Source: a virus | Virus record (IMG/VR): IMGVR_UViG_3300023174_000140 | Span: 12,759-76,758 of that record | Length of the DNA stretch: 64,000 nt | Direction: 5' to 3' (one strand) | In this document: positions 4,481-12,767 of the stretch, in pieces | How positions within the stretch are numbered: the first letter of the stretch is position 1 | Layout: each line of letters starts with the position of its first letter | Notes under the pieces: model-generated | The model's input: only the letters and a program-made list of their open reading frames with translations | What the model was told of the DNA's origin: nothing | The model's database searches: none | Program-made: the position numbers and the translations under genes

Positions 4481-4830
4481 TGGCTAATCCATACCATCAT
4501 TCTGTCTCTTCGTCAAAGAAGTGGGGTGGAACGCCCGAAGATTATCAGAGGATTCATGATTGGTTTGATGAGAGTAAGATGATGATGGCAGACTTTAGAC
4601 ATAGAGCTTTGCGACATCATGCCGAGGGCATCTTTATGTGTGAGAGAATATTTGGCAATACCATCACGCTATCCAACGGCAAAAAGATTCCTACTCGTTG
4701 GGTTGGCGAACAGCATGTTGCAGAGGACTTGGGATTTATTCCATCTATGCAAGATTGGCTTAAACATATTATGCCAGAACCTTGGATGGGCAAAACAAAG
4801 AAACTTGATGTGGAGTTAAATCCAGCATAA
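4480..4830 (+). CDS. DUF6915-like protein
   Basis: MANPYHHSVSS.KKWGG...IHDWFDESK...HRALRHHAEGIF...GEQHV.EDLGFIPS..DWL. Confidence 0.8.
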   Translation: MANPYHHSVSSSKKWGGTPEDYQRIHDWFDESKMMMADFRHRALRHHAEGIFMCERIFGNTITLSNGKKIPTRWVGEQHVAEDLGFIPSMQDWLKHIMPEPWMGKTKKLDVELNPA

Positions 4831-5100
4831 ACTTTTGGTGAGGTGATGGTGGTCATCGGTGGTCACTCCGTTATAGTGAATCGTTTGCAAGTATCGAAAA
4901 ACTTGCACTGTTTTTTAAAAAAAAGTTCTACAAGATATTGTATTTGATGTATAATAGGTTGTATGAGCGAAAAACAAATGGAGAAAAATTTATCATATGG
5001 AGATTGTTTTAATTTTTTTGGGAGTCTGTTTAGCAATTTGGTGGGAAATATTGAAGTAAGAGAACTTGACGAAAAGGAAAAAAACAATTAATATATAAAT

Positions 5101-5287
5101 AGTAGAAGGCAGGGTCTCAAATGCGAGGCACTGCAAAGGAAGAGAGCCAAGGCGCCCTATATCTCTTTCGTTCCTTCTGCACTGATTTCCGCACGAAATC
5201 AAGGATTGGATGTTGAGGTGATTGCGGGATTAACCTCGACCATATATCCTTTGAGCGTTTTTTGGTGTCGCAGAAACCATATTTTTT
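5101..5287 (+). ncRNA. putative pseudoknotted structured RNA upstream of tRNA-Asp
   Basis: Own promoter (TTGACG 5066, TAATAT 5089); GC-rich non-coding; stems GTAGAAGG/CCTTCTGC, TGATTTC/GAAATCA, AAGGAT..GAGG/CCTC..ATCCTT; loop-loop CCGCA/TGCGG. Confidence 0.65.
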
Positions 5288-5292
5288 TCAAA

Positions 5293-5366
5293 GGAATCGT
5301 AGCTTAATTGGTTAAAGCACCGCCCTGTCACGGCGGGGAGTGAGGGTTCAAGTCCCTTCGATTCCG
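5293..5366 (+). tRNA. tRNA-Asp(GUC)
   Basis: GGAATCG/CGATTCC acceptor, CCGCC-CTGTCAC-GGCGG anticodon arm, TTCAAGT T-loop, G73. Confidence 0.95.
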
Positions 5367-5403
5367 AATTGACAAAAAATAATAATCTAAATAATATAAA
5401 GTT

Positions 5404-5619
5404 ATGCGTAAAATTATATTCTTATTTATATTAATATCTTTTAATTCTTTTGCAGATCAAGATCCATTTTGCACAGCCAAAATAGATTGTAAATGTAGAT
5501 GTGTGCAAAACAGCAAGTTTAATATATGTTTATGTAGCACACCTTGCAAAACTAAAATGCCAGAAATATCTGCAAAAATAGATAAAGAAAATAATAAAAT
5601 AGAACTTAATCTACCATAA
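5404..5619 (+). CDS. small secreted Cys-rich protein
   Basis: Signal peptide (..SFA-D), 7 Cys; leaderless after TTGACA..TAATAT. Confidence 0.6.
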   Translation: MRKIIFLFILISFNSFADQDPFCTAKIDCKCRCVQNSKFNICLCSTPCKTKMPEISAKIDKENNKIELNLP

Positions 5620-5773
5620 ATATATGAGCGACATTCCAATTGTAACAAGCAAAAGTAAAATAAGATGTTTTATAGAAGCTATGGCTATTACTATTATAGC
5701 TTTAAGTGGATGGATTGCTTTTGTTTATTTTATTTACTTGACAGATTAACAAAATAAATATATATTTATATTT

Positions 5774-5994
5774 GCAGGACAGATTGTGTCGAAGCGAACT
5801 GGCGTAGGCATACGACCACTCGCGGAGCCAAAGTAATCTGGAGGGGTCGCACCCTTGAGGTAGAAGGGCATCTACAAAGATGCGCCTAAACTACACCGCG
5901 TCTGTTGCGAAACAGAGGTTCACAATCGGTAATGGGCAGATCTGAGGATCTGAAAAGGTAAGCAATAAAAACTTATCGTGCCTAGTCCTTTTTT
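5774..5994 (+). ncRNA. putative large multi-stem structured RNA (~215 nt)
   Basis: Promoter TTGACA 5738/TATATT 5761; closing stem AGGAC/GTCCT followed by a T-run; GATTGTG/CACAATC; GNRA-capped hairpins CGTA-GGCA-TACG and TCTGTT-GCGA-AACAGA; GCATCT/AGATGC; CAGATC/GATCTG. Confidence 0.75.
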
Positions 5995-6029
5995 CTTTAC
6001 TTATTTTTAATTTAACTTATATTTAATAG

Positions 6030-6284
6030 ATGAACAGCACATACCAATACATAGCAAACTATATCAACAAGCCCACATACTTTTGTTATGTTGTAGATCG
6101 TGTGGTTAATACAAATCCTTATTTGTTTACTGGCGAGTATAATAAAAAATTAATAAATAAGAAAGTATGGGTTGCTAAACAAGTATATCCAATGTGTATG
6201 CCAGAACAATATACCTATTTCAAAACACTCAAAGAATTAAAAGCCGCGTTAAATAGATGGGGCGCGAGTTGGGTAAGAGCTTGA
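6030..6284 (+). CDS. hypothetical protein
   Basis: ORF with promoter immediately upstream. Confidence 0.6.
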   Translation: MNSTYQYIANYINKPTYFCYVVDRVVNTNPYLFTGEYNKKLINKKVWVAKQVYPMCMPEQYTYFKTLKELKAALNRWGASWVRA

Positions 6285-6314
6285 CTTAATAATAATTTAA
6301 GTTATATTAAATAT

Positions 6315-6551
6315 ATGGCATCAACAAAAACAAACTCCCAACCTACCTTAACATCAAGAAGTGTTAAGATGTATTATCAATTTAAGATTGGCCCTGCTGA
6401 TTATGAAGTGATAGAATCCTTTGATGGTAATAATGAATTATGTTTTAGAGAAATAAAGAGGTCAGATTGGGGTGGCTCATATAGTGTTACCAATGAATCA
6501 TTAAGAAAGAAATTAATTAAAGCGGCGAAACAATATAGAATATTTAATTGA
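6315..6551 (+). CDS. hypothetical protein, leaderless
   Basis: TTGACT..TATATT-N6-ATG. Confidence 0.65.
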   Translation: MASTKTNSQPTLTSRSVKMYYQFKIGPADYEVIESFDGNNELCFREIKRSDWGGSYSVTNESLRKKLIKAAKQYRIFN

Positions 6552-6581
6552 CTAAATAATAATTTAGATTATATTCTATTT

Positions 6582-6866
6582 ATGACTAAAACATTCAAAA
6601 TAGGCGAGACAGCACTTGGTGGAACTATCAAGGTAAGTATTCCTAAAACCTTAACTAATATTAAGATAGATGTTATTTCTACTAATCATATTACCAGAGG
6701 TTCGTGTGATGCACCATACTTAATTAATCAGTATATCTATTATAGCTTTGATAGGATTAGAATTGAAAGAGATTTGTTTCAAATAGTAAGTGGTTACTGG
6801 TCAGATCAGATCCTTAAATGGATTACTAGCAAGTGGCAAATAGAGATTCCTAAAAATATAATTTGA
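6582..6866 (+). CDS. hypothetical protein, leaderless
   Basis: TTGACT..TATATT-N6-ATG. Confidence 0.65.
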   Translation: MTKTFKIGETALGGTIKVSIPKTLTNIKIDVISTNHITRGSCDAPYLINQYIYYSFDRIRIERDLFQIVSGYWSDQILKWITSKWQIEIPKNII

Positions 6867-10381: not shown

Positions 10382-10568
10382 GTATATCGTTTTGCGAGAT
10401 GGAGTTCGTGTGAGTGAAGATATGCACTCAAAGATTGAAGATGCCGAGCAAGAAGCGGAGTTTTGGCGTAAAGTCATCCGCTCTTGGCCTGATGGAACGA
10501 AAGTTACCATCAAGAAAATCGGTGGATAACTTCGGAGGCTGACATTGAGCTACGGCTTAGTGTTGATT

Positions 10569-10659
10569 GCTAGGGTCGTCTAACTGGTTAAGACCCACGA
10601 CTTATACTCGTGAAGCTCTAGATTTGAGCGTAATGAAGGTTCGAATCCTTCCCCTAGTA
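10569..10659 (+). tRNA. tRNA with UAU anticodon (Ile, AUA) and long variable arm
   Basis: GCTAGGG/CCCTAGT-A acceptor, CACGA-CTTATAC-TCGTG, 22-nt V region with GCTC/GAGC stem, GAAGG-TTCGAAT-CCTTC. Confidence 0.85.
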
Positions 10660-10921
10660 TGTAAAGCCTTATCATTCAACGAATTATTTTTATTGACTAT
10701 TTCTCTAACTCTTGTATATTAAACCTATGACAAACAAACAATCAGTTCCATTCTATGTGATGAATGTGTTCGGCCAAGATCGAGCTATCATCCTAAACAC
10801 CTCAATCCGTATGTGCACAACCAAAGAGACTTGTTCTCTCAAAGACTTGGAAAATTATGCCAAGGCTTTTGCAGTAGAGTTCTTTCAAGTGCCAAAACCT
10901 TCCAGCTTTCCAGCTAAAGTG

Positions 10922-12549: not shown

Positions 12550-12767
12550 TTAGTTCTTCGATATCAGAGAAGGTTGACCGCAAGGTTGCAGTTCTGGAAA
12601 GTTTCTAATGGAAACATTAGTTATATATAACGGAACGCCAATACTTCTCTTGGCGAGTCTGACTAACTCCCATAAGAGGATGAACCTGCCAACGCCCAGA
12701 GTCAGAGGCGAAAGAGGAGCAGGATATTCCTTTACGAAATCATGAGCGTAGAGGGTCGAAGAACTAA
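12550..12767 (+). ncRNA. putative large structured RNA (~218 nt) with pseudoknot
   Basis: 12-bp closing stem TTAGTTCTTCGA/TCGAAGAACTAA; GNRA hairpins GACC-GCAA-GGTT and CTAATG-GAAA-CATTAG; CCTGC/GCAGG; TCTGACT pairs with loop AGTCAGA; promoter TTGCAG 12518/TAAGAT 12540. Confidence 0.78.

Follow-up and report, generated by a model that had tools for sequence, protein, structure and literature searches.

The question raised by this locus is what is encoded by the short stretch that lies between a small ORF and a tRNA-Asp gene in the window, i.e. the whole 64,000-nt stretch of DNA analysed here, which belongs to an IMG/VR virus record of 76.7 kb with a completeness of about 50%. The preliminary description had read this stretch as a G+C-rich, non-coding and pseudoknot-rich RNA, which starts downstream of a TTGACG/TAATAT promoter, is co-transcribed with the tRNA and could be assigned to no family. 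Comparison with relatives indicates that positions 5101-5288 of the plus strand are indeed an independent gene, whose product is a folded non-coding RNA of ~185 nt from an uncatalogued family; transcription and the ends of the RNA are predicted from sequence. The gene and its immediate surroundings comprise the following elements.

5066..5094, plus strand: sigma-70-type promoter, TTGACG-17 nt-TAATAT, found by promoter scan
5101..5288, plus strand: whole RNA gene, from a predicted start at ~5101 to a predicted end at the U-run
5282..5288, plus strand: U-run, read directly from the letters
5293..5366, plus strand: tRNA-Asp (GUC), found by ARAGORN and Rfam, outside the family core

The first elements of the earlier reading are confirmed. 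G+C content is 0.455 at 5100-5299, compared with about 0.26-0.33 in the flanks, and the promoter is present, with the -35 box TTGACG at 5066-5071 and the -10 box TAATAT at 5089-5094, the last base of the -10 box being 7 nt ahead of 5101. An element of the form TTGAC-N17-TA(A/G/T)(T/A)AT is found at constant spacing to the first helix of the RNA, P1, in all the 17 relatives inspected. The -10 box and the stop codon of the small ORF at 4963-5091 share bases; this ORF has 42 codons and its 3′ end holds both the -35 and the -10 boxes of the RNA promoter. As many relatives keep its protein, at 50-89% identity, the promoter coincides in part with coding sequence.

Inside the RNA itself the alignment of relatives reveals no conserved reading frame: the ATG of a 31-codon ORF at 5121 is missing from most of them, and single-base indels occur along the alignment. 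The plus strand, with a folding energy of -60.5 kcal/mol, is more stable than its shuffles (z -2.68), which is not the case for the minus strand (z -1.25). Among the cells of the alignment that belong to predicted pairs, G-U combinations are 214 and A-C combinations 43, which indicates that the plus-strand RNA is the folding strand and the one under selection. The covariance model built for the whole RNA, R1, matches the window at 5100-5289 with 211 bits; this is the single copy in the 76.7-kb record, since no second one was found across its length.

Relatives were sought in two steps, first by the DUF6915 protein encoded 5′ of the RNA and next by the invariant 3′ motif GAGCGTTTNTTGGTNTCGC, using an nhmmer profile as filter, which was passed by 17 viral contigs and 72 metagenome contigs. 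All of them share the same gene order on one strand, consisting of DUF6878, DUF6915, the small ORF, the RNA, variable small genes and a DUF932 gene; the 52 distinct short forms of the RNA have pairwise identities of 57-92%. For the neighbours DUF6915 and DUF6878 a structure search found no solved relatives and a literature search found no papers. No cultured phage has a large terminase that exceeds 27% identity to the one encoded here. The tail motif also matched 55 bacterial or archaeal genome records, against a chance expectation of ~69 (an estimate based on 17 fixed bases, 596 billion bases and two strands), and none of the 55 passed the profile; thus, as far as the data go, the RNA is found in phages only. 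The family is restricted to a single lineage of uncultured phages.

The RNA folds into two parts, a three-way junction, named Module A, and a Module B, which is formed by the P5 arm with its knot and by a 28-nt tail.

5102..5180, plus strand: Module A, three-way junction of P1, P2 and P3, with a conserved CGUU in the junction
5102-5108 with 5174-5180, plus strand: helix P1, covarying
5109-5118 with 5125-5134, plus strand: helix P2, covarying
5138-5145 with 5162-5169, plus strand: helix P3, covarying
5183..5201, plus strand: local hairpin TGATTTC/GAAATCA, subclade-specific, which excludes the pseudoknot and the base of P5a
5187..5193, plus strand: 5′ strand of the pseudoknot, UUCCGCA, paired with 5223-5229
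5199..5254, plus strand: P5 arm, made of P5a, internal loop, P5b and apical loop
5199-5206 with 5246-5254, plus strand: helix P5a with one bulged base, 97.9% of cells paired, four pairs changed on both sides
5207-5211 and 5241-5245, plus strand: internal loop UGGAU / CAUAU, largely invariant, in which UGG and CAUA never vary
5212-5218 with 5234-5240, plus strand: helix P5b, 97.1% of cells paired, six pairs changed on both sides
5219-5233, plus strand: apical loop of P5b, 15 nt, holding the 3′ strand of the pseudoknot
5223..5229, plus strand: 3′ strand of the pseudoknot, UGCGGGA, in the P5b loop, paired with 5187-5193
5252..5279, plus strand: nearly invariant 28-nt tail, found from the alignment, with UGAGCG, U6 and a weak hairpin UGGU(GUCGCAGAA)ACCA

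On the 52 short forms, RNAalifold recovers P1, P2, P3, P5a and the small 3′ hairpin. Covariation among homologues, which had been proposed as a check on the first reading, is strong: when the full structure, including P5b and the pseudoknot, is laid on the MAFFT alignment, 93.7% of the cells pair, whereas only 41-51% do so if the partners are slid by 1-3 columns; 23 pairs are changed on both sides, and none of 500 shuffles reaches any of the observed measures. In a model-based alignment that also includes the long forms of the RNA, the corresponding values are 94.5% and 42-49%, with 36 of 52 pairs changed on both sides; this alignment leans to the modelled helices, while the pseudoknot, which is absent from the model, is unfitted. 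For Module A, with stand-alone copies added, 92.2% of the cells are paired, compared with 42-61% for slid partners, and 20 of 24 pairs are changed on both sides. Helices P1, P2, P3 and P5 are thus supported as predicted elements of the fold, and the stems GTAGAAGG/CCTTCTGC, GCAG/CTGC, GAAGAGA/TCTCTTTC and AAGGAT..GAGG/CCTC..ATCCTT, originally noticed in the window alone, are present and all covary in relatives. A further stem of that reading, TGATTTC/GAAATCA, can form in the window and in 31 of the 52 distinct short forms, but it is not a feature of the family: it is missing from the L004 type and from the long forms, its bases are shared with the pseudoknot and P5a, and it shows no covariation in the alignment of relatives.

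Of the long-range interactions, one pseudoknot, UUCCGCA/UGCGGGA, is well supported as a predicted pairing. It includes the pairing of CCGCA (5189) with TGCGG (5223) that had been proposed, which is present and covaries; indeed, at least four compensated variants occur (UUUCGCA/UGCGAAA, UUCCACA/UGUGGAA, UUCCUUA/UAAGGAA and UUCCGU/ACGGAA), in the types with the full seven-pair knot the own partner is almost always a better match than a foreign one, and 82% of the cells are paired in an alignment that was not fitted to the pseudoknot helix. The other two proposed pairings find no support in the comparison. The first would join CTCAAA (5116) to TTTGAG (5250); CTCAAA is itself part of the P2 hairpin, which covaries, and it is replaced elsewhere by CTCGGT or CTTATT. 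The second would join CCAAGGCGC to GCGTTTTTTGG; its CCAAGG is found in few members, and the others have GCGAGG or a wholly different hairpin. With one of three proposed long-range pairings left, the RNA can hardly be called pseudoknot-rich. The pairing of CGC (5190-5192) with GCG (5255-5257) was also considered, and was dropped because it does not covary.

Taken as a whole, the locus is probably best explained as a self-contained folded RNA gene, with its own sigma-70-type promoter, whose product acts in trans as an architectural RNA, the latter term being a broad statement. The RNA would be read from this promoter, the pseudoknot would fix its shape, and the unpaired, invariant internal loop together with the tail may form the surface that meets a putative partner. 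The position of the knot has a geometric consequence, since in all forms a linker of 4-6 nt is all that separates the knot strand from the base of the arm, which has ~17 pairs: the knot can be intramolecular only if the arm is folded back, otherwise it links two copies. The internal loop UGGAU/CAUAU could therefore act as a sharp hinge, with P5b folded back along P5a, or the knot could join two copies. We favour, on balance, a pseudoknot formed within one molecule; its formation between copies is possible, though rather unlikely.

The latter arrangement is the basis for the alternative that best survives, namely that the strand-loop pairing is intermolecular and head-to-tail copies form an RNA-only dimer, ring or cage, as happens for phi29 pRNA, ROOL, GOLLD and manA. 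This alternative, which we regard as tentative, is a special case of the architectural RNA proposed above, and the short linker to the foot of a long arm, kept in every form, speaks in its favour. Moreover, in ROOL (J6/8 with L8) and in GOLLD (L20 with J13/15) junction-loop pairs that covariation had revealed turned out to connect different chains (PMC12286853), and RNAs of <200 nt, e.g. manA, assemble into 8- to 60-mers (bioRxiv 10.64898/2026.07.01.735769); the window RNA has likewise a junction-loop pairing, it is phage-borne, and a part of its related loci have a tRNA gene nearby. Conversely, the invariant 5x5 internal loop in the middle of the arm is what an intramolecular fold-back hinge would be expected to look like, covariation does not distinguish pairing in cis from pairing in trans, and the RNA has no homology to phi29 pRNA, ROOL, GOLLD or manA. 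Somewhat less likely still would be that the window RNA is a small, modular equivalent of ROOL and GOLLD, whose copies assemble by themselves into an RNA-only ring or cage in the early phase of infection; the junction and a ~170-190-nt insert carried by the long forms would then face outward or bind cargo.

The absence of homology is seen in several searches. With Rfam 15 at gathering thresholds, the 64-kb window yields tRNAs only; at E<=10 on 4800-6600, the sole listing that touches 5101-5287 is rli33, at chance level (10 bits compared with a cut-off of 46, E 7.2); at E<=1, four long-form loci yield tRNAs and one tRNA-like match lying on a tRNA. The models for GOLLD, ROOL, manA and phi29 pRNA give no match. 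As for tRNAs and tRNA-like elements, ARAGORN and the Rfam tRNA model find 5293-5366 only, and the ACCA at 5276-5279 is no free 3′ end but is paired, as 3′ strand, in the small hairpin. No Rfam model thus matches this structured RNA, in agreement with the first reading. Candidate motifs were also examined and rejected. By eye, GAGGUGAU, which is complementary to the 3′ end of 16S rRNA, is found in the window type only, the CsrA-type GGA in UUGGAUG is GGC or GGU elsewhere, and the RNase P CR-I-like GGAAAGU is limited to the long forms; a kink-turn was discarded because the internal loop has no tandem G-A.

The RNA is not a member of GOLLD, ROOL, manA, pRNA or another Rfam family, nor is it kin to T4 rnaC/rnaD; it is of the same kind, that of orphan folded phage RNAs often found beside tRNA genes. 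The comparison with GOLLD and ROOL made at the outset is therefore apt as regards kind, but not as regards membership, since no model matches and the window RNA is shorter. GOLLD (RF01998) and ROOL (RF03087) are phage or prophage RNAs often located near tRNA islands, and the window RNA is phage-borne too, with a tRNA nearby in a part of the related loci. In GOLLD the 3′ region is conserved, the 5′ region less so, and a linker sometimes contains tRNAs; the window family has a constant 3′ module and a linker that takes inserts. ROOL is about 580 nt long and many GOLLD RNAs exceed 800 nt, whereas the window RNA has 185 nt and its long forms ~350-380 nt. Phi29 pRNA (RF00044), of about 120-174 nt, is made from an early promoter, and complementary covarying loops join its copies into a ring; its fold differs from that of the window RNA, whose phage is large and has an ordinary large terminase. 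The manA motif (RF01745) is a structured RNA of <200 nt, found partly in cyanophages, which forms RNA-only 8-, 10- and 60-mers (bioRxiv 10.64898/2026.07.01.735769); it is described in 5′ untranslated regions, whereas the window RNA stands alone in most relatives. The T4 rnaC and rnaD RNAs are small stable RNAs beside tRNA genes whose function is unknown (PMC9697503), and the window RNA likewise probably shares a transcript with a tRNA. The T4 RNAs, however, are downstream of tRNA-Arg, and rnaC has a T-arm-like GGTTCGAATCC, whereas the window RNA is served by a promoter of its own and precedes the tRNA, and in the family a tRNA neighbour is usually missing; R1 applied with filters off to T4 69000-74500 found at best 6.1 bits (E 0.28). 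A published catalogue drawn from IMG/VR lists 8,495 candidate viral RNAs of 29-151 nt (PMC10690425).

Co-transcription with tRNA-Asp, as first proposed, is plausible in the window: the promoter scan shows nothing promoter-like from 5094 to 5293 and the 3′ hairpin reaches only -3 kcal/mol, so that RNA and tRNA are probably transcribed together. As a family trait it does not stand, since tRNA-Asp is found 7-26 nt downstream in 8 of 89 related loci, comprising both short and long forms. A tRNA is present within 600 nt in about a quarter of the related loci, most short forms have none, and in many long forms a tRNA-Asn or tRNA-Thr is 190-340 nt off. In the scheme of a trans-acting RNA, weak termination in the window would probably allow the transcript to run on into tRNA-Asp, and RNase P would then free the RNA.

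The region downstream of the RNA shows further features of its own. Compared with the L004 type, the window and L002 have ~740 nt inserted (window 5289-6029, corresponding to L004:4099-4150), 3′ of the RNA and 5′ of the conserved CTTTACTTATTTTTAATTTA promoter block that belongs to the following gene. Within this insertion are tRNA-Asp, a pair of small ORFs and a second RNA candidate, and the site resembles a hot spot at which small genes and tRNAs are taken up as cargo. This second candidate, at 5738-5995, has TTGACA-17 nt-TATATT at 5738-5766, followed by ~220 nt of G+C-rich sequence with a closing long-range stem and a U-run; its MFE z is -2.47 and it has no Rfam match. Homologues that are 82-99% identical are present only in some relatives (L085, L150, L106, L176, L064/L002 and L116), which indicates an accessory RNA gene. 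A third RNA candidate, at 12550-12767, has homologues of ~91% identity in L074 and L070. Neither candidate has similarity to the RNA at 5101-5288. Elsewhere in the window, a tRNA-Ile (UAU) at 10568-10660 has 93 nt and should thus possess a long variable arm, an uncommon feature in tRNA-Ile.

The RNA also occurs in other forms, which reveal its modular build. Long forms of ~350-380 nt are found in L012, L015-L018 and about 20 metagenome loci; their extra domain of ~170-190 nt, which follows the three-way junction and precedes the knot strand, contains its own covarying helices and shows no similarity to the window RNA. A second model, R2, which represents the three-way junction alone, matches a stand-alone junction in more distant DUF6915 phages (L019, L028, L031, L032 and L044). 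Thus, since the junction can occur alone, the RNA is composed of a junction module and a knotted-arm module. In all five of these phages the stand-alone junction is 4-23 nt before a start codon, and in L028, L031, L032 and L044 a sigma-70-type promoter is directly 5′ of it. These junctions are on the minus strand (L031:1424-1633, L032:1442-1651, L044:1929-2126 and L028:1006-1346) and are followed by a U-run and the start codon. In L031, L032 and L044 this start codon opens a conserved ORF of 39 residues, rich in Cys (CxxC...CxCxxC), which in L028 is the second gene and is absent from the window; the Cys-rich protein could be tied to the junction, e.g. by autoregulation.

The position of the lone Module A argues against a role exclusively in trans, and a role in cis is possible for at least this module. 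It is also part of the case for a different and improbable explanation, in which the whole RNA is a cis-acting leader or attenuator, or a put-like antiterminator element, that controls read-through into tRNA-Asp and the downstream early genes. Such a function would fit an RNA that begins at +1 of a strong promoter and ends with a weak hairpin and a U-run, the closeness of tRNA-Asp in the eight loci mentioned, the mutual exclusion between local hairpin and pseudoknot in the window type, and the boxA-like GUUCUUUGAUAU of the long forms. However, the alternative hairpin is lacking in 21 of the 52 short forms and in the long forms, and neither the window type nor the L004 type has the boxA-like GUUCUUU. 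Moreover, the genes 3′ of the RNA vary among relatives, and most of them have, by eye, promoter-like boxes of their own and a leaderless start (a stringent consensus scan finds a promoter in 20 of 51 downstream flanks), which indicates that the RNA is not the leader of one gene. Within the window's clade no fixed position before one gene family, as expected for a riboswitch or leader, was found, the downstream genes being different. As a separate observation, the genes that follow the RNA (window 5369-5404 and relatives' flanks) start 5-7 nt past a -10-like box and are thus leaderless, and for some of them the box is GTGTAA(T/A), with no clear -35.

The tail has three variable columns only among the 52 distinct short forms. 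Its hairpin is thermodynamically weak (-3 kcal/mol for the window, -7 for the L004 type, both within the range of shuffles), and a terminator scan calls no intrinsic terminator there, although the U-run is present. An invariant and yet weak tail points to recognition of its sequence, rather than to stability or to a strong terminator. The U-run is probably a leaky stop, and in some relatives with a following tRNA, e.g. L178 and L164, it is interrupted.

The same tail suggests another explanation, more doubtful than the previous ones, in which the RNA is a base-pairing regulator or an RNA-chaperone sponge, with U6, hairpin and U-run as an Hfq-type module and the invariant unpaired stretch as seed. 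In enterobacterial small RNAs a layout of U-rich stretch, hairpin and U-run binds Hfq, and the tail has this layout and remains invariant while the helices drift. Conversely, sites complementary to the tail in the 64-kb window are at chance level (7 compared with 7.0 expected, and 1 compared with 0.7), the 3′ hairpin is not the stable, G+C-rich one of such modules, and five covarying helices with a pseudoknot far exceed the structure that such regulators need. Finally, a locus with no RNA gene, i.e. a DNA element (an origin, a protein-binding site or an attachment site derived from an RNA gene of the host) or a short coding sequence, is very improbable and largely refuted. The almost invariant 3′ 28 nt would suit the core of an attachment site, but the excess of G-U over A-C implies selection on one RNA strand, the genome records with the tail motif do not exceed chance and none passes the profile, and reading frames are broken by single-base indels.

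A folded phage RNA with an architectural role in trans would join a long-standing puzzle, that of orphan RNAs such as GOLLD, ROOL, manA and T4 rnaC/rnaD, several of which are shown by cryo-EM to build RNA-only assemblies. To these the present family adds a small and well-aligned case, with about 90 natural variants and a clean covarying pseudoknot, and the geometry of the knot poses a sharp question, i.e. whether it forms within one molecule or between copies. The family also provides natural module swaps, in the shape of lone junctions, short forms and long forms, and an RNA of 185 nt is easy to transcribe, probe and image.
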